DNA of 64,000 nt from Chthoniobacterales bacterium (GCA_038258815.1 JBBSPM010000014.1:20263-84262); one strand, 5' to 3'. Counted from the stretch's first letter, positions 1,902-54,981 are shown. Made by a program: numbers and translations. Notes: a model not told the origin generated them from the sequence alone.

Positions 1902-3152
1902 ATGAATATTCACGAATACCAAGCGAAAGAATTGCTCCAGAAATTTGGAGTGGCGACCCCTGCCGGGAAGGCGGTTCGAACCGCCGATGAAGCGGAAGCT
2001 GCCGCTCGTGAACTCGGCACGGAGGATTTGGTAATCAAGGCGCAAGTGCACGCGGGCGGACGCGGCAAGGGAACTTTTACGAACGGTTTCAAGGGCGGCG
2101 TGCATCTTTGCAAATCGCCGGCGGAGGCGCGCGAGATCGCGTCGAAGATGCTGGGGCAGACGCTGGTCACGCATCAAACCGGAGCCGCCGGACGGGTGGT
2201 GAATACGGTGCTGGTGGCGAAGTCGGTTGAGATCGAGCGCGAGATTTATTTCGCCATCCTGATGGATCGCGCGACGGGCGGGCCAATGATCGTGGCGAGC
2301 ACGGAAGGCGGAGTGGAGATCGAGGCGGTGGCGGAAAAATCGCCGGAGAAGATTTTGCGTGAGCCAGTGGATCGGCTGGCGGGATTGCAACCTTATCAGG
2401 CGCGGAAATTGGCCAAGCAGCTCGGGTTTACCTCCGCGCAGATCAAGCCGGCGGCGAAGTTGTTCGATGGGTTGTATCGCACTTTTCTGGCGCTCGATTG
2501 CTCGATGGTGGAAGTGAACCCGCTCGTCGTGACACGTGGAGGGACGCCCGCCGTGGCGTCCACTGAATCAGGGACGGGACAGCGCCCGTCCCTCCAGGAG
2601 CAAGGCGAAGTCCTGGCGCTGGACGCGAAGTTCAATTTCGACGACAACGCGCTTTATCGGCATCCGGAAGTCGCCGCGATGCGCGACACGGCAGAGGAAG
2701 ATCCACGCGAAGTGGAGGCCTCGAAATCCGGTCTGAACTACATCGGGCTCGATGGCAACATCGCCTGTCTCGTGAACGGCGCCGGTCTCGCGATGGCGAC
2801 GATGGACATCATTAAATTCTACGGTGGCAGTCCGGCGAACTTTCTCGATGTGGGCGGCGGCGCGACGGAGGAACAGGTGACGCAAGCCTTCAAGCTGCTC
2901 GTCTCGGATGAGAACGTGAAAGCGATCCTGGTAAACATTTTCGGCGGCATCATGAAGTGCGACGTGATCGCGCAAGGCATCGTGAATGCGGTCAAAGCCG
3001 TGCAGCTTCCCGTTCCACTGATCGTTAGGCTGGAAGGGACGAACGTGGATGCGGGCAAGAAAATCATCGCGGACTCGGGCTTACCCGTCACGACGGCCGA
3101 CGATCTCGGCGATGCCGCGCAAAAAGCGGTGAAGGCTGCGGAGGGGAAATGA
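1902..3152 (+). CDS. sucC: succinyl-CoA synthetase beta subunit
   Basis: [17 protein letters not shown]..., ATP-grasp and ligase-CoA regions, GGIMKCD. ATG 1902 is preferred over the ORF-track start at 1854. Carries an extra loop of about 20 aa (see the repeat at 2538). Confidence 0.97.
2538..2595. repeat. 58-nt compound palindrome embedded in frame in sucC
   Basis: GGAGGGACGCCcgccgtGGCGTCCactgaatcaGGGACGGGacagcgCCCGTCCCTCC: two stem-loops plus outer GGAGGGA/TCCCTCC arms. Confidence 0.7.
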
Positions 3153-3526
3153 AGATCACAGAGATCGCATTCACCGGGATTCCGGTAACGGACATGAAGC
3201 GCGCGCGCGAATTTTACGAAGGTGTGCTCGGGTTGCAGCCGGATCCGGAGATGACGAACGAGATGTGGCTGGAATACCCAATCGGTTCGGGAACGCTGGC
3301 CATCGCGTGCATCGGCGAGATGTGGAAACCGTCGGACCAAGGCACCAGCGCGGCGCTCGAGGTGGAGAATCTGGAGGAAGCGATCACGCGGCTCGAAGAG
3401 AAGAAGATCGCATTCCATAAGTTCGATTCACCGGTTTGCCGGATGGCGGCGATCCAGGACCCGGATGGGAACAAGCTCGTCATTCACAAACGGAAAACGG
3501 ACACAGAAAAGGGCACCGCCTCATGA
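3149..3526 (+). CDS. VOC (glyoxalase/bleomycin-resistance fold) family protein
   Basis: [29 protein letters not shown]...[10 protein letters not shown]. The start overlaps the sucC stop (ATGA). Confidence 0.85.
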
Positions 3527-3876
3527 TCAAAGAAGTCGCTTTCGTGGCCATTGCCGTGACCGACGTCGAGCGGGCGCGAAAATTTTATCAGGAGACGCTG
3601 GAGTTGAAACCAGGCATGAGCGCGATGGAAGGCGCTTGGGTGGAGTATGAACTCGGCGGAACGACGATCGGTGTCGGTTGTCATCCGGCTTGGCAACCTT
3701 CGCGTGATGGAACGTCCATCGCTTTTGAAGTGGACGATATTGACGATACGATTGCGAAGCTGAAGGAGCGCGGCGTGGAATTCGAGATGGAGAAGACCGA
3801 GACGCCGGTTTGCTGGATGGCGCAGTTTCGCGATCCGGATGGAAACAAGCTCCTCGTGCACAAACGAAAAAATTAA
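3523..3876 (+). CDS. VOC family protein, paralog of the preceding gene
   Basis: [28 protein letters not shown]...DPDGNKLLVH. ATGA overlap with the upstream VOC. Its stop abuts the sucD ATG. Confidence 0.85.
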   Translation: MIKEVAFVAIAVTDVERARKFYQETLELKPGMSAMEGAWVEYELGGTTIGVGCHPAWQPSRDGTSIAFEVDDIDDTIAKLKERGVEFEMEKTETPVCWMAQFRDPDGNKLLVHKRKN

Positions 3877-4758
3877 ATGGCTGTCCTCGTTGATAAGAAC
3901 ACGCGCCTGCTGGTGCAGGGTCTGACCGGAAAAACCGGCGGCTTCCATGCGAAGCAATGTATGGAGTACGGCACCAATGTGGTCGCAGGCGTGACGCCCG
4001 GCCGCGGTGGCGAGACTTTTGAAGGCAAGGTGCCGGTGTTCGACACGGTGGCCGAAGCGCGCAAGGAGACCGGCTGCGACGTGTCGGTTATTTTCGTGCC
4101 GGCAGCGGGTGCGGGGGATGCAATTCTTGAAGCGGTGGACGCTGGCGTGGAACTGGTCATTTGCATCACGGAAGGAATTCCGGTGATGGATATGATGCGG
4201 GTGAAGGCGCAGATGACTGGCAGGAAGAGCCGGCTCATCGGTCCCAATTGCCCGGGGATTATCACGCCGGGGCAATGCAAGATCGGCATCATGCCGGGCT
4301 ACATTCATAAGCCCGGCAACGTCGGCGTGATCTCGCGCTCGGGCACTTTGACCTATGAAGCGGTCTGGCAATTGACCTCGCGCGGCCACGGCCAATCCAC
4401 TTGCATCGGCATTGGCGGGGATCCGATTAATGGCATGTCACATCTCGATGCGGTGAAGCTTTTCAACGACGACCCCGAGACGCACGCGATGATTTTGATC
4501 GGCGAAATCGGTGGCAGCGCGGAAGAAGAAGCCGCGGAGTGGATTAAGGAAAATTGTAAGAAGCCGGTGGCGGCATTCATCGCGGGAGCGACGGCGCCTC
4601 CCGGCCGCCGGATGGGCCACGCGGGCGCGATCGTCTCCGGAGGGAAGGGGACGGCGGCGGGAAAGATCGAAGCACTGCAGGCAGCGGGCATCGCGGTAGC
4701 GGAAACGCCGGCCACGATGGCTGATACGTTGCTTCAACGGATGAAAGAGCGAGGGTAA
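3877..4758 (+). CDS. sucD: succinyl-CoA synthetase alpha subunit
   Basis: [24 protein letters not shown], phosphohistidine loop [14 protein letters not shown]. Confidence 0.97.
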
Positions 4759-4761
4759 GCC

Positions 4762-5889
4762 ATGGCGGTTACGACAAAAGGTTTGGAAGGCGTCGTCGCA
4801 AATTCCACGCGCTTGAGCGACGTGATTGGCGACAAAGGGCAGCTTATTTACAGCGGCTACGACATCAACGAGCTGGCCGGCAAGGTCACTTACAAAGAGG
4901 TCGTATTCCTGCTCTGGCGGGGGCATTTGCCCAATAGCGCCGAGCTGGCGGACTTTACGCAGAAGCTGCGGGAGGAACGCGAACTACCTGGCGGCGTAGT
5001 CGATTTCATCAAGAACACGCCGAAAACCGCGGACCCGATGGACGTGATGCGCACCGCCATCTCCATGCTTGGTCTTTACGATGACGAGATGAAGGAGGAG
5101 GCGACGCGCGAGATCAACGAGCGTCGCGCGCGCAGCATCACCGCGAAAATTGGCGTCATCGCCGCGTATTTTCATCGCGCGCGTCAGGGCAAATCATTGC
5201 CGCCCATCCGCATGGATCTGACCGAGGCCGAGCATTTTCTTTACCTGATTAACGGCGAGTCGCAGCCCAAGGAGGCGTCGGATACCCTCGACGTGGCTTT
5301 CGTGCTGCACGCCGATCACGGCATGAACGCGTCCACTTTCAGCGCGCGCGTCACCATTTCCACGCTGACGGATTTTTATTCCGCCATCACCTCCGCGATT
5401 GGCACGCTCAAGGGGCCGCTGCACGGCGGTGCCAATGAAGGCGTCATCCACATGCTGGAGGAAATCGGAAGCGAAGACAAAGTCGACGCCTATGTCGACC
5501 GCATGCTGGCCGAGAAAAAGAAGATCATGGGCATCGGCCATCGCGTTTACAAAACACTCGACCCGCGTGCCCCGCATTTGCGCGAGATGGCGGTGAAACT
5601 GAGCGACAAGCTGGGCGATCCGAAGTGGATCAAGATGTCCGAGCGCATTGCCGCGCGGATGAAGGAAAAGAAGGACCTGAACGCGAACGTCGATTTCTAT
5701 TCGGCGACGGTTTACTATTCGTTAGGGATTCCGACCGACCTCTTCACGCCGGTTTTCGCCATCGCGCGCTGCTCCGGCTGGTGCGCTCACGTGCTCGAGC
5801 AGTTGGAAGACAATCGTCTTTACCGCCCGCTCAGCGAATATGTGGGCGAGCCTGTCGGCAAGAAAGCGTTGCCGATCGATCAGCGCTAG
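4762..5889 (+). CDS. gltA: citrate synthase (375-aa type)
   Basis: LHADHGMNASTF, GPLHGGANE, GIGHRVYKTLDPRA. Confidence 0.93.
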   Translation: MAVTTKGLEGVVANSTRLSDVIGDKGQLIYSGYDINELAGKVTYKEVVFLLWRGHLPNSAELADFTQKLREERELPGGVVDFIKNTPKTADPMDVMRTAISMLGLYDDEMKEEATREINERRARSITAKIGVIAAYFHRARQGKSLPPIRMDLTEAEHFLYLINGESQPKEASDTLDVAFVLHADHGMNASTFSARVTISTLTDFYSAITSAIGTLKGPLHGGANEGVIHMLEEIGSEDKVDAYVDRMLAEKKKIMGIGHRVYKTLDPRAPHLREMAVKLSDKLGDPKWIKMSERIAARMKEKKDLNANVDFYSATVYYSLGIPTDLFTPVFAIARCSGWCAHVLEQLEDNRLYRPLSEYVGEPVGKKALPIDQR

Positions 5890-5937
5890 TTTGCGTCGTC
5901 ACTCGACGGGCCTGCCGGTCGGGCGTAGGTTTGTCCC

Positions 5938-6303: not shown

Positions 6304-6411
6304 TTGCCCGTAAACGTCTGCCCGTTTGAATGCGTAGGGCTCGGTCGAGAGACACCGGTGCCTGCTCTCCGGTCAGGAGCGGCGCCTCCTCGGCGAAGCG
6401 GAAGTGATTCG

Positions 6412-7032
6412 TTAGGCGGAGCGGAGCAGTTGATCGAGGCCGTCCAGGCAGATCTGGGACCAGCTTTCCAATTGCTCGCGACGCGCGCGCAGTTCGTCCG
6501 GGGTCAGAAACGCCAGATTCGTAATCATGGCCTCGCGCTTCTGCACCTTCGGCTCCGCCAATTTGAAGATGTGGACGATCCCCAAATGCACGCGGCCCAC
6601 CTCGGTGGTGTCGTCGTTTAAGAGCGCCACGATGCGATCTTCGAAAGTGGTGTCGATTGTCAGTTCCTCATTTACCTCACGCTCGACGCCGACGCGGTAG
6701 GCCGTCTCGTCCCAAGCGAAGAGAGACTCATCGGTGTCATTCATGTGGCCGCCGATGCCGATTGAGCCCTTTGAGACAAGCCGCTGTTCGCCGGCTTTCT
6801 TCCCGCGGACGTAGTGCAAAACCGTGTCGCCATGAACGATCAACGCATAAGGGATGATCTGTTTATAGGACGGATCGTTTTCCGCTTCGCTCCGCGGCAT
6901 AAAGAAATTGTTCCCTCGCGAAAGCAGGGCTTCGAGATATTTCTCCGGTTCGAATTTCAAACCGTGAAAGCTGCCCAGCTCGTCAAAGAGACTGCGCCGC
7001 ACCACCAGGACGTTTTCTTCTGCAGCGGCCAT
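6412..7032 (-). CDS. Nudix-like phosphoesterase
   Basis: IIPYALIVHGDTVLHYVRGKKAGEQRL..GIGGH and a Nudix-box-like GVEREVNEEL. Confidence 0.6.
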   Translation of the reverse strand: MAAAEENVLVVRRSLFDELGSFHGLKFEPEKYLEALLSRGNNFFMPRSEAENDPSYKQIIPYALIVHGDTVLHYVRGKKAGEQRLVSKGSIGIGGHMNDTDESLFAWDETAYRVGVEREVNEELTIDTTFEDRIVALLNDDTTEVGRVHLGIVHIFKLAEPKVQKREAMITNLAFLTPDELRARREQLESWSQICLDGLDQLLRSA

Positions 7033-7048
7033 GGCGAACGTGTCCTCC

Positions 7049-7732: not shown

Positions 7733-8380
7733 ATGAACCTCCGGACCTTGCTGCTCTTGCCTCTCTTTTTCGCCATCGCCGCAAAGACCCCGGCGCTGGA
7801 GGCCGACACGAAAGCGCAGCAGCTCGCGAAGGAAGTCTGGATCGCGAGCGGCGGCGAGAATTGGTCCGGGGTAAAGCAGATCCGCTTCACCTTCATCGTG
7901 GAAGAAGGTGGCAAGGAATTGGCGCACGCGGAGCATGATTGGAACGTGGCTGCTGGCACCGACCGCGTGCAGTGGAAGGGGAAGGACGTGACGGTGAATG
8001 TGTATGTGCCCGGCTCCGACGAAGAGGCGAAAGCCGCCTACGCGCGCTGGGTGAACGATTCCTACTGGCTGCTCGCGCCGCTGAAGGTGCTGGATAAAGG
8101 CGTGACGCTGACCGCGGAAGGCCAGAAAGAAAGCGACGGCGTGATGTGCGAAACCTTGCGCCTGAGTTTTGCCAGCGTCGGGCTGACGCCGGGCGACCAA
8201 TATCTACTCTACATCGATCCACAGACCAAACTCGTTAGGGCCTGGGATTACGTGCCGAAACCCGAGAACGTCATGCACGGAACCTGGGATAAATACGAGC
8301 GATTTGGCGGCCTTACTCTCTCCACCGAGCACAATTTTGGTGGGAAAGTGATCCGCTTCGCGAACATCGAAGTTCGGTAA
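7733..8380 (+). CDS. hypothetical exported protein
   Basis: Internal ATG at 7733 gives MNLRTLLLLPLFFAIAAKTPALE. The upstream 200 codons of the ORF-track entry are antisense to the PagL-like gene. Confidence 0.7.
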   Translation: MNLRTLLLLPLFFAIAAKTPALEADTKAQQLAKEVWIASGGENWSGVKQIRFTFIVEEGGKELAHAEHDWNVAAGTDRVQWKGKDVTVNVYVPGSDEEAKAAYARWVNDSYWLLAPLKVLDKGVTLTAEGQKESDGVMCETLRLSFASVGLTPGDQYLLYIDPQTKLVRAWDYVPKPENVMHGTWDKYERFGGLTLSTEHNFGGKVIRFANIEVR

Positions 8381-15750: not shown

Positions 15751-16512
15751 CTACTCTTCTGGCGTTCCTTTCAGCGCCTCGTCCACGGCCGATGGAAAAA
15801 TGCTGGTGACCTCGCCCTCTAATCGCAGCGTGACGCACTCGACGTGATCGTGCTCGGTCTTGCCGCGATTGATGATGAGATACGGCGCTCCGCGTTCCGC
15901 CGCGAGGAGTGGAAACGACGCCGCTGGGTAAACGGAAAGGGTGGAGCCGAGCGCGATCACGAGATCGGCTCGCATCGCGGCGTGAGTGGCGCGTCCGAGT
16001 TCCTTCGGATCAAGCGTTTGCCCGAAACTGATCGTGGCCGGTTTTAGGAAACCGCCGCATCCGCAGAGAGGCGGTCGTCGGTGCTGCCGGAAGAACTCGA
16101 AATGCGGCTCGGGATCGGTGCGTTCATGGCAGCTCTGGCATTCGATCAGCGCATTGGTGCCATGAATTTCGACCAGCAATTCTTCGCTGGTGCCGGCGAG
16201 ACGATGGAGGCCATCGATGTTTTGCGTGAGCACGGCGGTAACTTTTCCGGCGCGCTCCAGCCTAACGATTGCATCGTGGACGGCGTTTGGCCGGGCCTCG
16301 CGGAAGGCGTCGTGTCCTTCCAGTTTATAATCCCAATGCTCCAGCCGGGCCGCTTCCGAGGTCATGAAATCCTGGAAGTAAACTGGCTGTCGCTTCTTCC
16401 AGACACCGTTCGGTCCCCGGAAATCTGGGATGCCGCTGCCAGTGGAAATGCCCGCGCCAGTGAAGATGAGCGCGCGTTGCGAAGCGCGCAGGTAGTCGGC
16501 AAGATCAGGCAT
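15751..16512 (-). CDS. cobB: NAD-dependent protein deacylase (sirtuin)
   Basis: GAGISTGSGIPDFRGPNGVW, QNIDGLH, zinc ribbon CQSC...CGCGG. ATG 16512; the upstream 210 codons of the ORF-track entry overlap the CPBP gene. Confidence 0.9.
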   Translation of the reverse strand: MPDLADYLRASQRALIFTGAGISTGSGIPDFRGPNGVWKKRQPVYFQDFMTSEAARLEHWDYKLEGHDAFREARPNAVHDAIVRLERAGKVTAVLTQNIDGLHRLAGTSEELLVEIHGTNALIECQSCHERTDPEPHFEFFRQHRRPPLCGCGGFLKPATISFGQTLDPKELGRATHAAMRADLVIALGSTLSVYPAASFPLLAAERGAPYLIINRGKTEHDHVECVTLRLEGEVTSIFPSAVDEALKGTPEE

Positions 16513-17225: not shown

Positions 17226-18320
17226 TCATGGCGTCACGATTTCTGCATACGATTTTGGGTTGGTCGCACCTTCTGTGATCAGGACCAGAACACGTGTTTT
17301 TTCGTTTACGCGGAGTGCGGCTCGATTGTTCTCGCGCTCAACGCCAGTCAAAAGCTCCAGCAAACCAGCGAGCCCCGCTGCGCCGGTTTCGCCGGCGATC
17401 ACGCTGGCATCGCCTAACAAACGCATTGCCTCGCGCGCGCGATCGTCATCCACCGCGATGAATGCGTCGACGCCCTGCGAGACAATCGGCCACGCCACCA
17501 CCGACGCGCGGCCGCAGTTCAAACCCGCCATGATCGAATCATGCGGGCCGGGCACGTTGACGATCTCGCCGGCTTCCATCGCCGCGAGCATGCAGGCGGC
17601 GCGTAGCGGTTCCACATTCACAATCGCCGGCTGCGGATCTCTCTTCGTTAGGCGGTAATGCTGCACCACCGCCGCCGCGAGCGCGCCGACCCCAGTTTGC
17701 ACGGCCACCAGATCCGGTCCGCGTTCGTTTCGCCGTCCGAGTTCATCATCAATCTCCCAAAAAATGGTTGAGTAGCCTTCCATGACCCAGCGCGGCACTT
17801 CTTCGTAGCCCGGCCACGAGGTATCGGAGATGACGAGACAATGCTCACTGGCATCCTGCGCGGCGCGCGTGACCGCTTCATCGTAAGTGCCGTCGACGAC
17901 CTCGACCTTCGCGCCTTCGCCAGCGATGGCATCGATCCGAGCTTGGGCGGTGTGCGCGGGCACGTAGATGCGTGCGGCCATTCCTAATCGAAGCGCCAGG
18001 TGCGCCACTGCGCGGCCGTGATTCCCATCGGTGGCGGTGACGAGCGCGGTCGGGCGAGGCAATGAAGCAGCGCGCGTCTCCAAGACTCGATGAATGGCCC
18101 AGGACGCGCCGAGAATTTTGAATGCGGGAAGACCGAGCCGTTGTGATTCCATTTTCAAGAGGACGCTGCCGACGCCGAGGACGCGCGCGATTTCTGGAGC
18201 GTCGAGTAGTGGCGTGGGCGCGTAGCCTTCGAGCGTTTGATGGAAGGCGAGCGGAGCGCGGTTGTGCGAACCGGATGGAGCGCTTTCGCGTCGCGCATGG
18301 TAGTAAATCCGTGCCGTCAT
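17226..18320 (-). CDS. diaminopropionate ammonia-lyase-like PLP enzyme
   Basis: LLKMESQRLGLPAFKILGASWAI (PLP lysine), fold-type II pattern, 364 aa. Confidence 0.75.
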   Translation of the reverse strand: MTARIYYHARRESAPSGSHNRAPLAFHQTLEGYAPTPLLDAPEIARVLGVGSVLLKMESQRLGLPAFKILGASWAIHRVLETRAASLPRPTALVTATDGNHGRAVAHLALRLGMAARIYVPAHTAQARIDAIAGEGAKVEVVDGTYDEAVTRAAQDASEHCLVISDTSWPGYEEVPRWVMEGYSTIFWEIDDELGRRNERGPDLVAVQTGVGALAAAVVQHYRLTKRDPQPAIVNVEPLRAACMLAAMEAGEIVNVPGPHDSIMAGLNCGRASVVAWPIVSQGVDAFIAVDDDRAREAMRLLGDASVIAGETGAAGLAGLLELLTGVERENNRAALRVNEKTRVLVLITEGATNPKSYAEIVTP

Positions 18321-27415: not shown

Positions 27416-28141
27416 ATGCCGAGCGCGGTTCGCCCTCACATCCGCCGCGACTGGCCCGGCTTCCGCCAGCGCGGCCTCGAAGTCACGCGCCTCGAAGGAT
27501 TCAGCGATGCCGTCTTCGGGTTCGCGCTCACTCTTCTCGTGGTCGCGCTCGATGTGCCGAAGAATTTCGAAGATCTCGTCGCGACTATGCGCGGTTTTCC
27601 GTCGTTCGCCGTTTGTTTTCTCCTGCTCGCGCTCATTTGGAATGCGCACTACCAATTCTGCCGCCGCTATGGTCTCGATGATGGCATGACGCGCTTTCTC
27701 ACCTGCGTCTTGCTCTTCCTCGTCCTCTTCTACGTGTATCCGTTGAAGTTTCTCTTTAACCTCAGTGTCAACCAGATGGTCTTTGGTGTGCCAGCCGATG
27801 CCCTTCACCTGAAGGTGGCGCAGATTTCCACCCTTCTCGTTATTTACGGATTCGGCTTTGCCGCCGTCTATCTCGCGCTTTTTTTTCTTTATCTGCACGC
27901 CTGGCGCCTGCGCGACGCTCTGGAGTTGACCGCTCTCGAAAAAGCCGACACCCGCCATCAACTCGTCAAGATGCTCCTCTTTGTCGCGCTTGGTTTGATC
28001 GCGGCTGCGCTCTCCTCCAGCCGGCGCACGCTTTCCTGGGGCGGCCTGCCTTACCTGCTCATTTTTCCCATCATGCGCTCGCATGCGTTCATCCATCGCC
28101 GTCGGCGAGCGCCCCTGCTCAGAGACGCGTCGCCTCGTTAG
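27416..28141 (+). CDS. TMEM175/DUF1211 family K+ channel-like membrane protein
   Basis: RLEGFSDAVFGFALTLLV signature; six hydrophobic helices. Confidence 0.8.
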   Translation: MPSAVRPHIRRDWPGFRQRGLEVTRLEGFSDAVFGFALTLLVVALDVPKNFEDLVATMRGFPSFAVCFLLLALIWNAHYQFCRRYGLDDGMTRFLTCVLLFLVLFYVYPLKFLFNLSVNQMVFGVPADALHLKVAQISTLLVIYGFGFAAVYLALFFLYLHAWRLRDALELTALEKADTRHQLVKMLLFVALGLIAAALSSSRRTLSWGGLPYLLIFPIMRSHAFIHRRRRAPLLRDASPR

Positions 28142-28194
28142 GCGCGGGCGCGGTTGCGTCGCGCGACCTGCTCCCTCAAATATCAGCCAGCCCC

Positions 28195-32152: not shown

Positions 32153-32318
32153 TTTTCCCTTTCATCCCCGAGGGCGATGCGGATCGGCCCTACCACTGCG
32201 CTCACCTTGTCGCCTACGCCGTAAGGTAACACGGTTGAGAGCGCTCCCTAACGATATCGCAGTTTATTATTCTCGGCCGGGCGCGCGGGAGAGCTTTCGT
32301 TAGGGAAATAACTGAAGC

Positions 32319-36782: not shown

Positions 36783-37661
36783 ATGAGCGACGCGTCGTCT
36801 CCGGCGAATGCATTGTCCGAAGGAATTGCGGAACGCGTGCTGGCGCGGCTGGGACTTTCGCGACGCCCCGAGCCTACGCTGGAAGGGCTGGGCGCGCTTT
36901 ACGGCGGGTGGTGTCAGGCCGTGCCGTTCGATAATGTCCGCAAGTTGATCCATGCGCGCGCGGGTCTCGATGAACCCTTCCCCGGCGGCACGGCGGCGGA
37001 TTTCTTCGCGGCTTGGTTGAAGCACGGGACGGGTGGCACGTGCTGGGCGGGCGCGGGTGCATTCCACGCGCTGCTCTCCTCGTTAGGCTTCGATGCCGAA
37101 CGGGGGATCGGGACGATGCTGGTCACGCCGGAGTTGCCGCCGAATCACGGCACCGTGCGCGTCCGGTTTGATGATGCGTATTATCTGGTGGATTGCTCGA
37201 ATCTTCACGGCGAGCCACTCCCACTTCACCATGGTGCCGAGACCAGAGTGACGCATCCTGCCTGGGGTGTGCGGTGCGCTCAGCGCGCGGGGCACTGGTA
37301 TGTGCACTGGCGTCCGCTGCAGCAAGTGGGCGGGCTCGACTGTCGCCTGGAGAGCTTTGGCGCGTCGCAGCAAGAGTATTTGCAGCGCTACGAGAAAACG
37401 CGCACCTGGAGTCCGTTTAACTATCAGGTCACCGCGCGCCTGAATCGCGGCGATCGCGTCACCGGCCTGGCCTTCGGTCAAGCCGTCACTCTTGCATCCG
37501 ATGGCACCGCGCAGGAACGACCCGTCACTCACGAAGAACGCCTGCGCGTGCTCATCGATGAGATCGGAGTGAGCGAAGAAATGGCGAGCCAACTTCCTGA
37601 GGACACGCCCACGCCGCCTCCGCCTTGGTCGCGGGCTGCGAAGGACGGCAGCGCATCCTAG
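36783..37661 (+). CDS. arylamine N-acetyltransferase family protein
   Basis: LGALYGGWCQAVPFDNVRK; HGTGGTCWAGAGAF (catalytic Cys context). Confidence 0.75.
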   Translation: MSDASSPANALSEGIAERVLARLGLSRRPEPTLEGLGALYGGWCQAVPFDNVRKLIHARAGLDEPFPGGTAADFFAAWLKHGTGGTCWAGAGAFHALLSSLGFDAERGIGTMLVTPELPPNHGTVRVRFDDAYYLVDCSNLHGEPLPLHHGAETRVTHPAWGVRCAQRAGHWYVHWRPLQQVGGLDCRLESFGASQQEYLQRYEKTRTWSPFNYQVTARLNRGDRVTGLAFGQAVTLASDGTAQERPVTHEERLRVLIDEIGVSEEMASQLPEDTPTPPPPWSRAAKDGSAS

Positions 37662-46656: not shown

Positions 46657-47358
46657 ATGATCAAAAACAAATTCATCCTGACTCTCGCTGCGGGTCTCTG
46701 CTTCCTTGGGTTGCAAGAAGTCCGTGCGAACCATATCGATTTCACCCAAGATGGCGCATTTACGCAGACTGGCCCTGGTAGCCAGTCGGTGATGGGTGCC
46801 GCAACTAACATCCTCGGCGCTGCTCGTTTTGTCACCGTCGCGGGCCTGAATGCCGCGGCGTCTTCGACCGCTGCCGGTCCTCTCACGTTCATGTCCGGCG
46901 CCAGCGGTGGTTCTTTGACGCTCGGCTACGGGACGCTCTACGGCGGTGGTGCTTATAGTGCGAACTACATCAACCCAGGGACGAATAATTGGGACTCGAT
47001 TCGCGTCAGTCTGGGTAGTGTGACCGCGGGAGCGACCGGCTTGGTGGGACTGTCGGTGCAAGATAGCACCGGAGCGACCTTCACTTTCGCCTCGCAAGCT
47101 CTGACCGGTGCAGGAAATTACATTTTCTTGCACAGCGCCGCTCCGGGAATCAATTTCCTGGCGATCACCGGCACGCAGTTGACGCTTTCTGGCGTGAGTG
47201 CAAACGCCACAGTCAATTTTGTGGTCGGTAACGGTCCTGCCGCAGGCCCTGGTGGCATCACGCGTTTCACGGCCGTTCCGGAGCCTGGCACGGTCGCTCT
47301 CAGTGTGATCGGCGGGCTCGGAATGCTCGGGCTCCTTCGCCGTCGTCGGTTGTCCTAA
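46657..47358 (+). CDS. PEP-CTERM sorting-domain exported protein
   Basis: Signal peptide plus C-terminal VPEPGTVALSVIGGLGMLGLLRRRRLS. Confidence 0.85.
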   Translation: MIKNKFILTLAAGLCFLGLQEVRANHIDFTQDGAFTQTGPGSQSVMGAATNILGAARFVTVAGLNAAASSTAAGPLTFMSGASGGSLTLGYGTLYGGGAYSANYINPGTNNWDSIRVSLGSVTAGATGLVGLSVQDSTGATFTFASQALTGAGNYIFLHSAAPGINFLAITGTQLTLSGVSANATVNFVVGNGPAAGPGGITRFTAVPEPGTVALSVIGGLGMLGLLRRRRLS

Positions 47359-47383
47359 CGATAAAGTTAGTTGGTTTTGCTGC

Positions 47384-48806: not shown

Positions 48807-51446
48807 CTATCCGACTTCCGGGGCGACTTCGCTGACAGCAGGCGCGACCGGCGTGGCACCGGCGCGTCCGATCCATTGCAGGCCAGCGCGATATGCCGCG
48901 AGATCGACGAGCTCCGCGACGCGTCGCTTCAAGAGGCGGGCGCGGAAGGCAAGAAAGCCCAGAAAGACGACGTAGGCGGTCATAATAGCAAGGTCAGCCC
49001 GGCCAGTGTTGAGCACATGATATGTGAGCAGGGTCAGCATCACGAGATTGATAATCACGGTCGTGGTGACGAAGCGATGGCGCAGCGCCACGCGGGTAAG
49101 GCATTTCGGGCCGCCGTGGTATTCGGTGACGGTCTGCAACGCGATGCTCCACCAGAAGTTCCCGTAAATCTGGATGTCCCACTCGTTCCAACCGGTGTCG
49201 GTGGAATAACGCCAACCCTCCTCATCCAAGAGCCCGAGGATGGAGGTGAGAAGTTGATGACGCTCCTTGCCTTCCTCGCTCCAGTAACTGCGGCGCGTAA
49301 GAGTGCCGCGAAGATCGGCGGTGGGAGGGAGGAGTTCGTGAGTGGAGATGACGGAACGCGGGGTGCGCTTGAACTGCAGCCAGGTGAAATAGCGGGACCA
49401 ACCGCGCACGAGCGGTTGCGAAAAGGCCAGCGCCATCACCAGTAAACGCGCCGGGATAGTATCGAACTTCGGCTCGATCCGCGCCCGTAACATGTAGGAA
49501 AGCGCGACGCAGAGCGTGCCGCCAAACATGAGATACGGCACGATGCGCACTTCCGGCACGAAGATGCCGATCCCGGACAGGAAGACGGTGAGCGCGAACC
49601 ATTCCACGCTGCTTAGGTAGTTGGCGATTTCGGATTGCGGGGTGGGGTAGATGGACTGGAAGAAGCCTTCTCCGAAGACGCCGTGGTAGACGATGGGCCG
49701 ATTGATAAACCAACTGAAACGCGGCGTGCCGTAAATCTGGCCCCGCCATTTCGCGCTTCCGGTAGGACCGAAAAAGATCAAGTGTTTGAAGCGCAGGAGC
49801 GATTCCGCTTCGCCATACCCTTCCTGCTGTTTGCGAAAGGCGGTGAGGGTGAAACGTCGGTAATGCCAGACGATGGCAGTGGGGCTAAAGGCGATTTGGT
49901 GGCCGGCCTGCTGGATGCGCCAACAGAAGTCCACGTCGTCTCCGGCTTTGTGATATTCGACATCGAAACCGCCTACGTTTTCGAAGGCCCAGCGATACCA
50001 GGCCATGTTACATCCGGGGATGTGTTCCGCGATGGTGTCGGTGAGAAGAACGTGGCTCGGGCCGCCTGGCGCGGCTGCGACGCAGGCTTGGACCCAATTC
50101 TGCGCCGGGGGCGAAATGTTTGGCCCGCCCACTCCGGCGTAGTCGCCGCTGCGCAGTGTGCCGATGAGGTAACGCAGCCAATCTTTGTCCGCCATGCAGT
50201 CGGAATCGGTGTAGGCAAACACTTCGCCGCGCGCGGCTGCGGCCCCGGTGTTGCGCGCGTAACTGAGGCCGTGATTGGTTTGGTGCAGGTAGCGAATTTG
50301 CGGAAAGCGCGCCGCGATCTCCGCGGTGTTATCGGTGGAGCCGTCGTCCACCAGGATGACTTCGTAGGCGGGATACTCGATCCGCCCTAACGAGTCGAGA
50401 CACGCTTCGAGGGTCTTGGCGCCATTGTAGGAACAGACGATGACGGAGACGAATGGTGGATCGACCAAGGCGGGGTGGGGGAACTCCGAGTTGTTCTGTC
50501 CGAGCTTGTCGTGCAGGTGGTGGAAGACCTTCTTTGGTTCACGGTCGCGAGTGACGAGGCCGAAAGCCCAATCGGTGATTTCCTGCCCACCGGTGAACCA
50601 TTCATCCGTCCACGCGAAAAATATCGTCCCGGCCAGACCGCAGCGCGCCACGCTTTCCACGTGCCAGCCGAGCATTTCCGCCTGCTCGTCTTCGGAGTGG
50701 CGGATGGTGTCCATGCCGAATTCGCCGAGGATCAGGGGGCGATCTTCGGCGAGGTTTTGCAGCCGCAAGAGGTAGCGCTCAAACTCATCCTGGTGGTGCA
50801 GGTAAACATTGAAGCAGAGGAAATCGACGTTCTGCGGGAGGAGGAATTCTGTCGGCGGAAAACTCGCGTAGGAGAAAAGGACGTTAGGGTTGGCCGCGCG
50901 CGCGACACGGATGAGATGCTCGAGAAACTCGGTGACACGCCGAACGCCCAGCCAGCGCACCATGGTGCTGGAGATTTCGTTGCCGACGAGATAACCGAAG
51001 ATGGCGGGATGGCCAGCGTGCTCGGCGACGGCGCTGCGGACTGATTCCACGATCTCATTGCGCGCTTTTTTTTCGCGCAAAAATTCGACGTGTTTGGCCC
51101 ACGGTAAAGTGATGAGAACTCGCATCCCGCCAGCGGCGCAGCGATCGAGAAACCACAACGGTGGAGAATGATAAATGCGCAGGACGTTGATGCCGAGGAC
51201 GCGCATTTGAGCGAGATCGCGGTCGAGTTGTTCCGGTGGGCCGAGGTAATATCCGGCGGCGTCCGGCCGGAATGGTCCGTAGGTGACGCCCTTGACATAG
51301 AATTTCTCGGTACCTTCGAAGAAGAACTTGGCCACGGCGCTGACGCGCCCCAGCGACGGGGGACTCACAGCCGGTTTCCTAGTGCAAGCGCCGGATGGAC
51401 GCAAAGGTTTTGCATTTGCGGGGTTACGCCGATTTATCCCGCGCAC
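48807..51446 (-). CDS. fusion protein: clan GH-A-like glycoside hydrolase + GT2 glycosyltransferase + C-terminal multi-TM domain (start uncertain)
   Basis: N-terminus FYVKGVTYGP..GYLVGNE..LILGEFG (acid/base and nucleophile Glu pattern). The central part, VSVIVCSYNGAKTLEACLDS..VILVDDGSTDNT..YTDSDC..GCNMAW..GDDVDFCWR, is GT2. It then has 6+ TM helices. Confidence 0.85.
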   Translation of the reverse strand: MRGINRRNPANAKPLRPSGACTRKPAVSPPSLGRVSAVAKFFFEGTEKFYVKGVTYGPFRPDAAGYYLGPPEQLDRDLAQMRVLGINVLRIYHSPPLWFLDRCAAGGMRVLITLPWAKHVEFLREKKARNEIVESVRSAVAEHAGHPAIFGYLVGNEISSTMVRWLGVRRVTEFLEHLIRVARAANPNVLFSYASFPPTEFLLPQNVDFLCFNVYLHHQDEFERYLLRLQNLAEDRPLILGEFGMDTIRHSEDEQAEMLGWHVESVARCGLAGTIFFAWTDEWFTGGQEITDWAFGLVTRDREPKKVFHHLHDKLGQNNSEFPHPALVDPPFVSVIVCSYNGAKTLEACLDSLGRIEYPAYEVILVDDGSTDNTAEIAARFPQIRYLHQTNHGLSYARNTGAAAARGEVFAYTDSDCMADKDWLRYLIGTLRSGDYAGVGGPNISPPAQNWVQACVAAAPGGPSHVLLTDTIAEHIPGCNMAWYRWAFENVGGFDVEYHKAGDDVDFCWRIQQAGHQIAFSPTAIVWHYRRFTLTAFRKQQEGYGEAESLLRFKHLIFFGPTGSAKWRGQIYGTPRFSWFINRPIVYHGVFGEGFFQSIYPTPQSEIANYLSSVEWFALTVFLSGIGIFVPEVRIVPYLMFGGTLCVALSYMLRARIEPKFDTIPARLLVMALAFSQPLVRGWSRYFTWLQFKRTPRSVISTHELLPPTADLRGTLTRRSYWSEEGKERHQLLTSILGLLDEEGWRYSTDTGWNEWDIQIYGNFWWSIALQTVTEYHGGPKCLTRVALRHRFVTTTVIINLVMLTLLTYHVLNTGRADLAIMTAYVVFLGFLAFRARLLKRRVAELVDLAAYRAGLQWIGRAGATPVAPAVSEVAPEVG

Positions 51447-52723
51447 GCCACTGCGATCGCTGCCGAGACGACTTCTCCGGTGCGCGCGAGGTCGCTGGAG
51501 GTATGCGCTGTGGAGAGGAAGCCGGTCTCAAATTGGGAAGGAGCGAAGTAAATTCCGTGATCCAGACAGTAGCGAAAGAAACGCGCGAAGGCTGCGCGAT
51601 CACTGTGTTTTGCGGAGGCGAGGTCTGTTATTGGGCCAGCCGCGAAGAAGAGGCAAAACATGGAGCCGATGCGGTGAAATGTAAGTGGCTGGCTCGTTAG
51701 GCGCATCGTTTCTCGGGTCGCGTCTTCGAGTTGGGCTCCCAATTTTTCCAGCGCACTCCAGCCATCGATTCGCTCAAGTTCGCGCAACTGGGCAAGGCCG
51801 GCGGCCATGGCGAGGGGATTGCCGGAGAGCGTGCCGGCCTGATAGACCGGGCCGTCGGGCGAAAGGTGATCCATGATTTCGGCCCGCCCTCCGAATGCGC
51901 CCACCGGGAGCCCGCCGCCAATCACTTTCCCGAGCGCGGTGAGGTCCGGGCGGACTCCGTAAATTTCCTGAGCGCCGCCGCGTGCGACGCGGAAGCCAGT
52001 CATGACTTCGTCGAAGATGAGGAGGGCACCGTGGCGCGTGCATTCGTCGCGCAGTTGTTGCAGGAAATTCTCTTTTGGGAGGTAAAGACCGGCGTTGGCT
52101 GGGATGGGCTCCAGAATGATGGCAGCGATCGATTTCGCATTTTCGCGGAACGCAGCGCGAACGGCTTCGATGTCGTTAAACGGGAGTGAGATCGTAAGTT
52201 CAGCGAACGCTGCGGGAACGCCCGCGCTGTCTGGGCGGCCGTGCGTCAATGCACCGCTGCCGGCATTCACTAACAAAGAGTCGACATGGCCGTGATAGCA
52301 GCCTTCGAATTTGATGATTTTGTCGCGCCCAGTGAACCCACGCGCGAGGCGAACGCACGACATCGTGGCTTCGGTGCCGCTGTTTACCATGCGCACCTTC
52401 TCGATCGAGGGCACCCAGCGGCAGAGCAGTTCTGCCATGTCCACTTCCAAGGGATTTGGGATTCCGAAACTCACACCGCGGGCGGCGGCCGCTTGAACGG
52501 CGTCTACGACAACTCTCGGGGCGTGGCCCAAAATCGCCGGCCCCCAAGTGCCGACGTAATCAATGTATTCGTTGCCGTCGACGTCCCAGATTCTCGCGCC
52601 GGCCGCGCGCTCGACGAAGAATGGCTCGCGCTCGAGACCACGGAAGGCGCGGACCGGGGAATTTACGCCGCCCGGGATGGAGCGCTGGGCGGCGGCGAAG
52701 AACGCGGAAGAGCGGGTGGGCAT
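51434..52723 (-). CDS. hemL: glutamate-1-semialdehyde 2,1-aminomutase
   Basis: IPGGVNSPVRAF, FDEVMTGFR, LGKVIGGGLPVGAFGG. Confidence 0.96.
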   Translation of the reverse strand: MPTRSSAFFAAAQRSIPGGVNSPVRAFRGLEREPFFVERAAGARIWDVDGNEYIDYVGTWGPAILGHAPRVVVDAVQAAAARGVSFGIPNPLEVDMAELLCRWVPSIEKVRMVNSGTEATMSCVRLARGFTGRDKIIKFEGCYHGHVDSLLVNAGSGALTHGRPDSAGVPAAFAELTISLPFNDIEAVRAAFRENAKSIAAIILEPIPANAGLYLPKENFLQQLRDECTRHGALLIFDEVMTGFRVARGGAQEIYGVRPDLTALGKVIGGGLPVGAFGGRAEIMDHLSPDGPVYQAGTLSGNPLAMAAGLAQLRELERIDGWSALEKLGAQLEDATRETMRLTSQPLTFHRIGSMFCLFFAAGPITDLASAKHSDRAAFARFFRYCLDHGIYFAPSQFETGFLSTAHTSSDLARTGEVVSAAIAVACAG

Positions 52724-52845
52724 CGGAGTTCGGAAGCGTGCAATGTCCAACCCGCCTTCGCAAGGCTACGGCGGGCAGGCGTTTCAATAAAGAGTGGGTG
52801 CGTTGACAGTTTCTCGCGTCGCCCATACGCTCCGGTCGCGCAAAG

Positions 52846-52917
52846 GGCGGGGTAGCCAAGTGGTAAGGTCGGGGTCTGCAAAACCTCTATTCGCGGGTTC
52901 GATTCCCGCCCCCGCCT
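52846..52917 (+). tRNA. tRNA-Cys (GCA)
   Basis: Acceptor GGCGGGG/CCCCGCC, anticodon stem GGGGT/ACCTC with loop CTGCAAA, T-arm GCGGG-TTCGATT-CCCGC. No encoded CCA. Confidence 0.93.
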
Positions 52918-52946
52918 CGCACGCACCGCGCCGGTTTGGAAGACAT

Positions 52947-53552: not shown

Positions 53553-53610
53553 TGCATATTTGCATGTAAAAGAGCTTGTAAATGTGCTTGGAGGGTGACA
53601 CCATGATGGT

Positions 53611-54024
53611 GTGAAAACGAAGAAACACAATACTCGCGAGCGTGCTACCCCTCGGGTTAAGGAAGCTACGGCTCTTTATGGGACGGCCTTTGAAACGTCT
53701 CCGGTCTTGGGCTTGCTCGAGATGGCAGAAAAATTCGGGCTCCGCCAGGAAACGCTGAGCCGCATGACAGGGTTTTCTCTGCGGGCGGTCGCAGGCTGGG
53801 CGAGCGGAAAGCAGCCATCAGCGCCCGTGCAACGCGCACTGACGGAGATGGATCGTTTACTCGACGCACTGGGCCGGCTCATGAAACCGAAGGAAGTCGG
53901 GCGTTGGTTGAAGGAGCCCAATCCGGCTTTTGATGGTTCCACTCCGGTGCAGGTGATCGAGCGCGGGCAGACGGATCGTATCTGGCGGATGCTCTATTTT
54001 GTGGAATCCGGCGAGCCCGGTTAG
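53611..54024 (+). CDS. Xre-type antitoxin with DUF2384-like toxin-binding domain (GTG start)
   Basis: HTH region FGLRQETLSRMTGFSLRAVAGWASGK plus WLKEPNPAFDGSTPVQVIERGQTDRIWRML. Confidence 0.8.
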   Translation: MKTKKHNTRERATPRVKEATALYGTAFETSPVLGLLEMAEKFGLRQETLSRMTGFSLRAVAGWASGKQPSAPVQRALTEMDRLLDALGRLMKPKEVGRWLKEPNPAFDGSTPVQVIERGQTDRIWRMLYFVESGEPG

Positions 54025-54084
54025 AGCGAAACCCGGAGCCGTTCGCACGGCCTCGTGGCTCGTCTCTTGCTCGGGTGGACTGAG

Positions 54085-54975
54085 ATGCGACGCGCCATTT
54101 TTGCCCTTTTCGTTCTGCACGGCCTCTGCTCATTGGCACTGGGGAAATTGTCACCCCTCACGGTCAAAGACGTTAGCCTGATGCTGCGCAGCGGCTATGC
54201 GGTGGCGGCGATCGAGAAAGACCTGGCGGCACGGCATTTCCTGGGACCGATCGATGCACTGGGTGAGAAACAGCTCACGCAAGCTGGAGCCACTGGCGCG
54301 CTCATCACCGATTTAAAGAGCACGCGATATGCCGTGCCGGCGGAAGAGGTTTTGGCCGCGCAGCAGGAGATGGAAGCGAGAGCACTTCGGAGTGCGGCCA
54401 TCGCGGAAGAAGCAAAAAAGACGGACAAAGCCTATCTGGAACAGGTGGCCCGCAGCCGCGCCGAAGCATCGGTGCCCGTCGTCAGTGGAAATATCGTCGC
54501 AAGCACGGTGAAAGGCGATTTGGTCACTTCTCAAAACGGAACTTTACACGCTTACGACGATCAGGCGCTGGAGCGCAAAAAGCTGATCTGTCTCTACTTC
54601 TCTGCGAAATGGTGTGGACCCTGTCGGAAATTTACCCCGGATTTGGTCGCCTACTACAATCGCGTCGTCGCGGTGCATCCAGAATTTGAAATTGTCTTCG
54701 TGAGCAATGATCGCTCCGCGCCTGCGATGGAGGCTTACATGCGGGAGATGCAGATGCCGTGGCCAGCGGTGAAGTTTGAGAAGATCGCCGCGCATGAAGA
54801 TTTGCAGCAATACGCTGGGAACGGGATTCCGTGCCTGGTCGTGATCGACGCGCGAGGGAAAGTCGTTTCTCACAGCTACGATGGGGAAAACTATCGCGGG
54901 CCGCAGGCCGTGCTCGGGGATCTGGACAAAATCTTCGCCAGCAATGCCCCAGCGGCCGTTGCCCAAACTCGTTAG
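54085..54975 (+). CDS. exported thioredoxin-like (TlpA/nucleoredoxin-like) protein
   Basis: Signal peptide; LYFSAKWCGPCRKFTP. Confidence 0.8.
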   Translation: MRRAIFALFVLHGLCSLALGKLSPLTVKDVSLMLRSGYAVAAIEKDLAARHFLGPIDALGEKQLTQAGATGALITDLKSTRYAVPAEEVLAAQQEMEARALRSAAIAEEAKKTDKAYLEQVARSRAEASVPVVSGNIVASTVKGDLVTSQNGTLHAYDDQALERKKLICLYFSAKWCGPCRKFTPDLVAYYNRVVAVHPEFEIVFVSNDRSAPAMEAYMREMQMPWPAVKFEKIAAHEDLQQYAGNGIPCLVVIDARGKVVSHSYDGENYRGPQAVLGDLDKIFASNAPAAVAQTR

Positions 54976-54981
54976 GCGGTT

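Follow-up and report, generated by a model that had tools for sequence, protein, structure and literature searches.

The DNA analysed here (the window, 64,000 nucleotides in length) belongs to a Chthoniobacterales (Verrucomicrobiota) metagenome-assembled genome and harbors the octamer TCGTTAGG, usually followed by C. By exact search we recovered 15 copies (11 on the plus and 4 on the minus strand), in complete agreement with the number and coordinates listed in an earlier note made on the same sequence. Within protein-coding genes the word is accommodated in several readings. In the sense orientation and spelled aTC-GTT-AGG (Ile-Val-Arg), it lies inside sucC (1854-3152, plus strand; copy at 3022..3029, +) and a sirtuin/CobB gene (15751-16512, minus strand; copy at 16261..16268, -), while a hypothetical gene (7130/7733-8380, plus strand) carries it in sense as cTC-GTT-AGG (Leu-Val-Arg; 8232..8239, +). 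The tripeptide Ser-Leu-Gly is encoded, again in sense, by TCG-TTA-GGg in the citrate synthase gene (4762-5889, plus strand; 5719..5726, +; TTA being a rare codon) and in a large glycosyltransferase gene (48807-51446, minus strand; 50386..50393, -), and by TCG-TTA-GGc in an N-acetyltransferase gene (36783-37661, plus strand; 37080..37087, +) and in metG (28195-29808, plus strand; 29131..29138, +), where it forms part of the KMSKSLGN motif. In each of 8 related genomes this codon of metG carries the word in identical spelling, while the flanking synonymous sites vary. Antisense copies were found in the genes of a PLP-dependent enzyme (17226-18320, minus strand; 17645..17652, +) and a class-III aminotransferase (51434-52750, minus strand; 51694..51701, +), both of which read C-CTA-ACG-A (Leu-Thr) on the gene strand.

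At gene ends, the word provides the TAG stop codons of a TMEM175-like channel gene (27416-28141, plus strand; stop at 28139-28141, copy at 28135..28142, +) and of a thioredoxin-like gene (54055-54975, plus strand; stop at 54973-54975, copy at 54969..54976, +), and overlaps the TAA stops of two unannotated genes (6412-7032, minus strand; stop at 6412-6414 on the minus strand, copy at 6409..6416, +; and 46657-47358, plus strand; stop at 47356-47358, copy at 47354..47361, -). Our gene calls thereby reproduced the four stop codons named in the earlier note (TAG at 28139 and 54973, TAA at 47356 and 6412), and its codon readings (Ser-Leu-Gly in metG, N-acetyltransferase and citrate synthase; Ile-Val-Arg in sucC and sirtuin) were equally correct. 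The two intergenic copies (32247..32254, -; 32297..32304, +) constitute the left and right arms of the sole close inverted pair, with 42 nt between the arms, and the hairpin they could form does not exceed shuffled sequence in stability (z = 0.44).

The word and its distribution

The abundance of TCGTTAGG in the window was contrasted with several backgrounds. Dinucleotide-preserving shuffles gave an expectation of 1.0 copies (largest count 4; 0 of 100 shuffles reached 15), Markov models of order 1, 3 and 4 predicted 0.88, 0.70 and 2.0 copies, and the resampling of synonymous codons in the predicted genes yielded a mean of 2.8 (maximum 5), a figure that includes the two intergenic copies left unaltered by the procedure. 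All these nulls fall far below 15. The earlier note was right to take the whole octamer as a genuine signal at the level of DNA; the over-representation stands (15 copies versus about 1 expected), while its magnitude is about 15-20-fold instead of the 9-fold originally put forward. Among all octamers of the window, TCGTTAGG ranked first for over-representation against every background tried. The hexamer GTTAGG occurs 24 times and is directly preceded by TC in 15 cases, C or G follows 14 of the 15 copies, and the flanks are unrelated, so that the word is not part of a longer repeat (all as the earlier note had it). Single-mismatch variants are rare in the window.

When the window was pooled with 8 related loci, 114 copies were obtained versus 2.64 expected, with all eight positions sharply defined and C as the ninth base in 91 of the 114, a preference that holds in every frame class. 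In practice, the working form is the 9-mer TCGTTAGGC, with G as a minor ninth base; past position +9 the flanks of the pooled copies hold no information (<=0.2 bits per position). TCGTTAGG differs from its complement CCTAACGA and has no palindromic core.

TCGTTAGG is the top octamer in 8 related species-representative genomes (L001-L006, L008 and L010; 2.8-11.9 copies per 10 kb), whose MetG proteins share 64-75% identity with that of the window. In nearly all other loci (80 Verrucomicrobiota and two outgroup loci were sampled) it is at chance level or absent, the exceptions being low counts in L007, L011, L024 and L025 and 3 copies in L060; the sampled sister lineages (Terrimicrobiaceae and most Chthoniobacter loci) and other Verrucomicrobia loci lacked it. 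A further 27 unrelated soil metagenome contigs were enriched, with up to 18 copies per 10 kb, and the densest of them (L202) was confirmed as Chthoniobacterales. The signal recurs in independent assemblies from different studies. Its density is 0.23 copies per kb for the window and 0.3-1.8 per kb for the relatives and the metagenome contigs, and across the clade the excess over chance is 15- to 80-fold. Among close relatives the density differs about 10-fold or more (about 1 copy per 10 kb at the lowest and 18 at the highest), and no dialect variants were found among the loci sampled. Soil Chthoniobacterales of one subclade carry TCGTTAGG/TCGTTAGGC as a genomic watermark specific to their lineage. 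The octamer was previously unknown in this lineage, as the earlier note had stated, and no tag of this kind, comparable to the DNA-uptake tags of Neisseria and Haemophilus or to HIP1 of cyanobacteria, seems to be on record for the phylum Verrucomicrobiota.

Reading frames, placement and orientation

All four open reading frames are used by TCGTTAGG, with sense and antisense copies in about equal proportion, and the two frames that contain a stop are confined to gene ends; six frame and strand classes are occupied in all. Because all open frames and both strands are used, and because the synonymous-codon null fails, the signal acts on DNA and not on protein or RNA. Its imprint on coding sequences is deep: Ser-Leu-Gly is spelled with TCGTTAGG in 32 of 61 and 43 of 64 instances (52-67%, versus about 1% expected), and Pro-Asn-Asp/Glu with CCTAACGA in 26 of 27 and 54 of 60 (90-96%, versus about 6%), while none of these tripeptides is spelled in this manner in the outgroup. 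Together with the codon readings given above, this bears out the proposed accommodation of the word by rare codons. The tripeptide Pro-Asn-Asp/Glu is itself 3-5 times commoner in the clade than in the outgroup, and amino acids were altered to make the word (for example, FVDE to FVRE in L006 and DPDA to DPNE in the metG of L001).

Around 90% of the copies are situated in genes, and with 10.5% of them intergenic (versus about 12% non-coding DNA) there is no enrichment in intergenic DNA. About 5% of stop codons come from TCGTTAGG (11 of 204, versus ~0.1 expected). This excess at gene ends surpasses the 43-fold excess of the whole genome by a factor of only about two; it does not bear out the uptake reading that the earlier note had drawn from it, and agrees better with a word set down at any position that tolerates it than with a role in termination. 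Nor does the inverted pair hint at an uptake sequence, as had been suggested, since the pooled unbiased set contains 1 close pair versus 4.2 expected under random placement. Pairs at convergent gene ends exist and were found only through a pair-targeted search. The spacing of the sites is indistinguishable from random (gap CV 0.98, Kolmogorov-Smirnov p = 0.25), without deserts or clusters.

In 27 independent contigs (181 copies) the orientation of TCGTTAGG was unrelated to the G-rich strand (63:79) and was not over-dispersed among contigs (chi-square 22.3 on 27 df, where 52-66 would be expected at 70-75% polarity), by which a polarity of 65-70% or more is excluded. Within contigs the word thus points either way at random, with no relation to GC skew, and therefore a Chi- or KOPS-type role, to which the earlier note had likened the word, is unlikely. 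The 11:4 strand bias that it had pointed out lies within chance (binomial p = 0.12). The GC skew of the window is positive.

Between genomes of about 78% nucleotide identity, 72 of 120 aligned TCGTTAGG sites (60%) were conserved, three times the level of other octamers (20.6%). In the pooled set, single-mismatch variants showed no overall enrichment (118 versus 104 expected). Some near-cognate words were depleted, for example TCGTTCGG (5 versus 19 expected), a further mark of directional pressure towards the word.

A proposed self-recognition tag and competing explanations

A sequence-specific, orientation-independent force on DNA writes and keeps TCGTTAGG wherever the genome tolerates the word, be it in the choice between synonymous codons, at variable residues of proteins, in stop codons or in spacers. 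As our best reading we give a probability of roughly 40% to TCGTTAGG being a transformation-linked self-recognition tag upheld by molecular drive, of the kind represented by DUS (Neisseriaceae), USS (Pasteurellaceae) and HIP1 (cyanobacteria). DNA uptake remains the closest analogy at hand, as in the earlier note, though on grounds other than those given there. The force would most likely be molecular drive fuelled by natural transformation: fragments bearing the word would be preferred, be it by a DNA receptor at the surface or in the periplasm or during an early step of processing or recombination. TCGTTAGG-bearing alleles would then displace word-free ones (as with DUS, USS and, on recent evidence, HIP1), and the word would thus label the DNA of close relatives. 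To our knowledge, natural competence has so far been undescribed in Verrucomicrobiota, and competence, pilin or methyltransferase genes were not seen among the 39 window genes scanned, which both weigh against the tag reading.

Like DUS and USS, TCGTTAGG is a short, asymmetric and sharp word (up to about 1 per kb), common to related species and absent from neighbouring lineages, that occupies both strands equally without replication-strand polarity (63:79 here), lies mostly in genes and in permissive frames, avoids stop-containing frames save at gene ends, and reshapes codon choice and even peptide content. The same frame behaviour of DUS and USS has been explained by uptake-driven drive (bioRxiv 10.1101/2025.10.24.684340). 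Unlike them, TCGTTAGG has 8-9 bp (versus 9-12 bp), belongs to a different phylum, in which competence is not known and any receptor would be putative (ComP or the predicted ComN in the DUS/USS systems), and lacks terminator, intergenic or inverted-pair enrichment (10.5% intergenic; 1 pair versus 4.2), whereas predicted terminators are the location of about half of the DUS and USS (bioRxiv 10.1101/2025.10.24.684340). These missing classical hallmarks of uptake (enrichment in terminators and intergenic DNA, abundant inverted-repeat pairs) speak against the tag, and so does the behaviour of its one-mismatch variants. One-off USS are several-fold enriched in Haemophilus, unlike those of TCGTTAGG. 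Moreover, in very large populations weak selection for another function could give a similar saturation.

HIP1 (GCGATCGC) is likewise an octamer, and the 15-80-fold excess and 0.2-1.8 copies per kb of TCGTTAGG, its presence in and between genes and in all frames, the failure of codon usage as an explanation, its lineage-wide occurrence and the conservation of orthologous sites above background are HIP1-like. HIP1 has a reported periodicity of 10-90 kb; the pieces analysed here span 20-64 kb. In contrast to TCGTTAGG, which is asymmetric, HIP1 is palindromic, with a methylated core (GATC/CGATCG) and known cognate orphan methyltransferases. It shows 15-300-fold enrichment and conservation across genomes (PMC5861425), its range being set at no less than 16-fold enrichment and 0.2 per kb or more (PMC5861425), values that TCGTTAGG attains, and it raises natural transformation up to 100-fold (bioRxiv 10.1101/2024.09.10.611283).

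More tentatively, TCGTTAGG may give Verrucomicrobiota their first self-recognition sequence of the uptake type, which would also be the first with an asymmetric word outside Proteobacteria, and Udaeobacter-related Chthoniobacterales, which count among the most abundant uncultured bacteria of soil, may be transformable. We know of only three lineages with hyper-abundant self-marking words (Neisseriaceae, Pasteurellaceae and cyanobacteria), each of which has been informative on transformation, recombination and species barriers. If the tag reading is true, these abundant uncultured bacteria would be naturally transformable and exchange DNA mainly with close relatives, under a tag strong enough to reshape the codon usage and proteome of the clade; such a case, the fourth of its kind, independent of the others, asymmetric and set in a dominant uncultured soil group, would make gene exchange in soil accessible to testing and guide DNA design for the future genetic manipulation of these organisms. 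TCGTTAGG would also be a simple marker by which contigs of the clade could be binned and foreign DNA in it spotted, and offers a natural experiment on the extent to which pressure at the DNA level can outweigh codon usage and the sequence of proteins (one tripeptide is spelled with the word in up to 96% of instances).

Foremost among the alternatives, and in our view unlikely, is a biased repair linked to methylation, through which a motif-specific methyltransferase and a mismatch-nicking (Vsr-like) or conversion activity would repair near-cognate heteroduplexes towards TCGTTAGGC, the word accumulating as a mutational by-product without function of its own. It would account for the depletion of near-cognate core variants in the pooled set (TCGTTCGG, 5 versus 19 expected; TCGNTAGG, 3 versus 11; TCATTAGG, 0 versus 1.7) and for a build-up independent of orientation and reading frame. 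However, very-short-patch repair is known to change word frequency by only about 2-fold, far below the 40-80-fold excess observed, and contiguous, non-palindromic methyltransferase sites of 8-9 bp are unusual. The three-fold conservation of orthologous sites also argues against it, an equal pattern in HIP1 having been read by Xu et al. as selection and not replenishment (PMC5861425). A process of this type was the classical HIP1 hypothesis (PMC4390886), which we count in its favour.

Still less likely, the word could be the site of an abundant chromosome-organising or segregation protein, under selection that would be weak per site and yet effective in very large soil populations. A sharp word of 8-9 bp, conserved between genomes, is what a protein site would resemble, and a nucleoid-structure role has been proposed for HIP1 (PMC5861425), a precedent counted here. 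Nevertheless, the placement of TCGTTAGG, indistinguishable from random, speaks against such a role, its density spread of about 10-fold or more among close relatives would be odd for essential architecture, and near-saturation of every synonymous opportunity is needed by no known nucleoid protein.

We give little credence to a non-polar Chi-like signal that would attenuate a helicase-nuclease of RecBCD/AddAB type and mark self DNA, polarity being absent since breaks in slow-growing soil cells would be mostly two-ended. All characterised Chi are co-oriented with replication (in E. coli the leading strand carries about 75% of them), while TCGTTAGG lacks replication-strand polarity, and its 40-80-fold enrichment, saturation of synonymous sites and bending of protein sequences exceed any known Chi. 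What it has in common with Chi is length and asymmetry, as a non-palindromic octamer, and a window density (1 per 4.3 kb) close to that of E. coli Chi. Phages are known to mimic host Chi, and one low-GC viral contig (L085), which may or may not be such a case, carries 23 dispersed TCGTTAG versus 2 expected, a word that, however, lacks the final G.

A KOPS-type or architecture-imparting polar octamer steering FtsK towards the terminus is largely refuted by the 27 contigs without polarity, such octamers having the length of TCGTTAGG and, unlike it, a strong skew towards the terminus. The 11:4 split in a window of positive GC skew and a 70:44 split in the syntenic loci would fit it, but the latter loci share orthologous sites and are not independent, the high-density relatives split about evenly (8:8, 11:8 and 11:9), and the canonical GGGNAGGG is skewed 20:6 in the syntenic set, so that the KOPS role appears taken. 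Equally close to nil is the likelihood of chance, codon usage, a protein motif or a dispersed-repeat or mobile-element remnant, for which nothing speaks beyond Ser-Leu-Gly being a common tripeptide, and which is refuted by the failure of the shuffle, Markov and synonymous-codon nulls, by the six frame and strand classes, the uninformative flanks and the independent assemblies, a dispersed repeat of REP/MITE type being rejected by core-only conservation (<=0.2 bits past +9) and by the location of ~90% of the copies in genes.

Abundance and distribution of the octamer

An exact search of the window recovered all 15 copies of TCGTTAGG (11 plus, 4 minus) where an earlier note had counted them, while shuffles that keep dinucleotides held 1.0 ± 1.0 copies (maximum 4). 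The k-mer statistics proposed in that note, run here on the window, ranked TCGTTAGG first among all octamers under Markov backgrounds of orders 1, 3 and 4 (0.88, 0.70 and 2.0 copies expected, respectively). Orders 1-4 were used for the ranking in place of the maximal order, which was dropped because it masked the signal, the sub-words being enriched as well. Each single-mismatch variant occurs 0-5 times in the window, the base preceding the octamer is G in none of the 15 copies, and the one directly after it (+9) is C or G in 14, in line with the preference reported before. The hexamer GTTAGG was found 24 times, with TC directly before it in 15 cases, and the sequences around the copies bear no likeness to each other, both as the note had held.

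By domain searches, the genes that host the copies are housekeeping genes unrelated to one another (sucC, citrate synthase, sirtuin, PLP-dependent enzyme, TMEM175-like channel, metG, N-acetyltransferase, glycosyltransferase, aminotransferase and thioredoxin-like protein). Resampling of synonymous codons in the predicted genes (called with a crude, purpose-written, simple codon log-odds caller) left a mean of 2.8 copies, including 2 intergenic ones held fixed, and thus the word is not demanded by the proteins. The closest named relatives of the window's MetG (<=76% identity) belong to Chthoniobacterales (Spartobacteria) metagenome-assembled genomes of the Verrucomicrobiota; the window also carries an ADOP-family permease and other genes typical of soil bacteria.

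The comparison sample comprised 80 loci of at most 21 kb each, a single genome being taken for every species in which MetG aligned; the loci are thus 20 kb samples of genomes rather than whole genomes. In the eight closest carriers (L001-L006, L008, L010) TCGTTAGG led all octamers in over-representation, each locus holding 5-20 copies (2.8-11.9 per 10 kb) against 0.1-0.3 expected; pooled with the window, these loci hold 114 copies versus 2.64 expected, a 43-fold excess. Further relatives (L007, L011, L024, L025) carry it at 1-2.5 per 10 kb, and no copies were found in the Terrimicrobiaceae, most Chthoniobacter and nearly all other Verrucomicrobiota loci of the 80-locus scan. A metagenome scan queried with a convergent pair of the 9-mer matched 120 contigs, of which 27 (at least 3 kb, 216 kb in total) contained another 181 copies, with densities reaching 18 per 10 kb; assignment of these contigs to the clade is by motif content, with independent confirmation for one only. 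In the densest contig (L202) the encoded permease has named homologues in Chthoniobacterales. The octamer is a property of a clade and not of the window alone. A distant Verrucomicrobiota locus (L060, MetG 52% identical) has three copies in 12 kb versus 0.1 expected (at 2982, 8534 and 9674, on a single strand and with unrelated flanks), and may mark another lineage that carries the word or be due to chance.

Reading frames, conservation and protein change

Among the 114 copies of the pooled, unbiased set, 37 are read as TCG-TTA-GG (Ser-Leu-Gly), 25 as antisense CCT-AAC-GA (Pro-Asn-Asp/Glu), 17 as antisense C-CTA-ACG-A (Leu-Thr) and 13 as xTC-GTT-AGG (x-Val-Arg), while 10 overlap stop codons and 12 are intergenic (10.5%, with non-coding DNA making up ~12%). 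Since sense and antisense copy numbers are similar, TCGTTAGG is not a peptide or RNA motif; it is a signal at the DNA level. In each frame class C follows the octamer as ninth base, and the effective unit is thus TCGTTAGGC.

Where proteins permit the word, it is largely taken up: Ser-Leu-Gly is written as TCGTTAGG in 32/61 cases in the relatives and 43/64 in metagenome contigs (~1% expected from codon usage), and Pro-Asn-Asp/Glu as the complement CCTAACGA in 26/27 and 54/60 (~6% expected), with 0 in the outgroup for both. As a tripeptide, Pro-Asn-Asp/Glu is also 3-5 times more common than in the outgroup. In the codon alignment of metG, the Ser-Leu-Gly of KMSKSLGN is TCG-TTA-GGN in 8 clade genomes while adjacent synonymous sites vary, and amino-acid changes create the word in L006 (FVDE to FVRE) and L001 (DPDA/DPNA to DPNE). 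The pressure toward the word is strong. Conservation of the motif in related genomes, a check suggested earlier, bore this out, as 72 of 120 sites (60%) were kept between genomes at ~78% DNA identity, versus 20.6% of other octamers. In the pooled set, single-mismatch variants are overall at expectation (118 vs 104), with fewer than expected for core positions 3, 4 and 6 (e.g., TCGTTCGG, 5 vs 19 expected) and slightly more for positions 1, 2, 5 and 8.

Orientation, spacing and gene ends

The 11:4 strand bias of the window, which had been likened to Chi or KOPS, is not significant (p = 0.12), and the syntenic loci owe part of their 70:44 orientation excess to the orthologous sites they have in common. 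Across 27 independent contigs, the proposed comparison with GC skew revealed no correlation (63:79 versus the G-rich strand, p = 0.21), and the orientation split within contigs was at coin-flip level (chi-square 22.3 on 27 df, with about 41, 52 and 66 expected under 65%, 70% and 75% polarity), a test for which replication direction need not be known. The canonical KOPS consensus GGGNAGGG favours one strand, by 9:2 in the window and by 20:6 once the syntenic loci are added, in agreement with the positive GC skew of the window; the plus strand is thus probably the leading one, and a canonical polar octamer exists apart from TCGTTAGG. In the metagenome contigs, GGGNAGGG orientation was dropped as a stand-in for the direction of replication because its copies (8:6) were too few. 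Gaps between copies of TCGTTAGG are approximately exponential (CV 0.98, Kolmogorov-Smirnov p = 0.25), and a search for motif deserts, as possible marks of foreign DNA, found none that were significant. With 1 close pair vs 4.2 expected, such pairs are scarce if anything, and the inverted pair singled out in the window, its only one, folds no more stably than shuffled sequence. Across these pieces of at most 64 kb, TCGTTAGG is not polar, periodic or paired. The E. coli Chi core CTGGTGG was considered as a second, Chi-like signal (27 copies in the window vs ~5 expected) and rejected, since a 14:13 strand split and mostly in-frame CTG-GTG-G placement indicate a codon or peptide effect.

All four stop codons linked to the octamer by the earlier note were reproduced by the gene calls and domain searches. 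The claimed enrichment at gene ends held in part: the word supplies the stop codon in 11/204 genes versus ~0.1 expected, but this excess is only ~2 times its general enrichment, and agrees better with freedom in the choice of amino acids at C-termini than with a role as terminator. Convergent-gene pairs in which both arms give TAG stops exist, although they were ascertained by searching for pairs. Among the genes called in the window, TAG is the stop used most often (31 TAG, 22 TGA, 18 TAA; TAG share 44% versus ~22% in relatives and outgroup), and only 2 of the 31 lie within the octamer.

Candidate roles and related words elsewhere

A sharp, asymmetric 8-9-mer that is clade-specific, independent of orientation and frame, near saturation at permissive sites and able to alter protein sequence presents the five-part pattern of known genomic self-tags, which favours a transformation-linked recognition word. 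We infer, with a probability of roughly 0.4, that TCGTTAGG may be such a word, which molecular drive tied to natural transformation would maintain. The DUS and USS tags build up through uptake bias and recombination under the same frame constraints (bioRxiv 10.1101/2025.10.24.684340) as TCGTTAGG, yet they are associated with terminators and inverted pairs, and the octamer has neither. The cyanobacterial HIP1, a palindrome unlike TCGTTAGG, is enriched 15-300-fold and conserved between genomes (PMC5861425), raises natural transformation up to 100-fold (bioRxiv 10.1101/2024.09.10.611283) and co-varies in abundance with proteins that the authors of that study tie to DNA uptake (bioRxiv 10.64898/2026.06.24.733823). 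Production of the word by methylation-linked biased repair appears unlikely, a site for an architectural protein somewhat more so, and a non-polar Chi-like self marker is the least probable of these three. A KOPS-type polar octamer, given the coin-flip orientations, and a repeat remnant, a codon or peptide effect or chance are effectively excluded. Full-text literature searches for TCGTTAGG or its complement retrieved no paper, those on uptake sequences in Verrucomicrobia or Udaeobacter yielded no relevant work, and a 2025 survey presents such sequences as traits of the Neisseriaceae and Pasteurellaceae; we rate the octamer as a self-tag-like word in a phylum new for such tags.

The idea that a hyper-abundant octamer of its own is present in every lineage of Verrucomicrobiota was rejected, as the strongest alternatives (in L073, L076, L077, L058, L044 and L063) are tandem or longer repeats. 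These include (G/A)CACAGAGG units in inverted blocks that recur about every 3 kb (L076, 8752-19756), heptad AAAGCGG arrays in at least 4 intergenic blocks (L073, 3802-10111) and a 12-nt tandem repeat of TCGACTCA plus 4 nt (L077, 9-220). Dispersed octamers with unrelated flanks (p ~1e-8 to 1e-9, borderline after multiple testing) occur in L078 (Chthoniobacter sp., ACGGACAA, 7 copies), L070 (Luteolibacter, CTATCAGA, 6 copies) and L065 (CCTGACAA, 8 copies, differing from CCTAACGA at two purine positions). TCGTAG was rejected as a dialect, being mildly (2-3-fold) enriched nearly everywhere.

Among viral contigs, most matches were at chance level, and no clearly host-like phage was found. L085 (IMG/VR_UViG_3300017971_001044, 39% GC, 15 kb) has 23 copies of the heptamer TCGTTAG versus 2 expected (15 plus, 8 minus; dispersed, with unrelated flanks) and 121 of GTTAG versus ~32; all long ORFs except one lie on the minus strand. 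Two other IMG/VR viral contigs (L158, 1392-1500; L098, 11093-11168) contain arrays of 3-4 palindromes (T)CGTTAGGAAAAATCCTAACG(A) at ~10 nt spacing that look like operator or iteron sites, with no dispersed copies elsewhere in either. A 12-nt-spaced pair of the 9-mer was present in 25 metagenome contigs, mostly of high GC (0.68-0.75; L186, L195, L199-L201, L206, L207, L213 and ~17 others, e.g., L199, 1942-1971). About 20 of the 25 have in common a ~46-50 nt near-perfect hairpin, gATGATGGG-TCGTTAGGCACAC-N5-GTGTGCCTAACGA-CCCATCATc, and no dispersed 9-mer copies were found in them; here the 9-mer sits inside a longer palindrome, REP-like or terminator-like, that belongs to another lineage. Within the window, tRNA-Cys (52846-52918) is directly followed by a gene for a RES-domain toxin (53043-53552, Pfam PF08808), probably a small toxin-antitoxin module inserted beside the tRNA.
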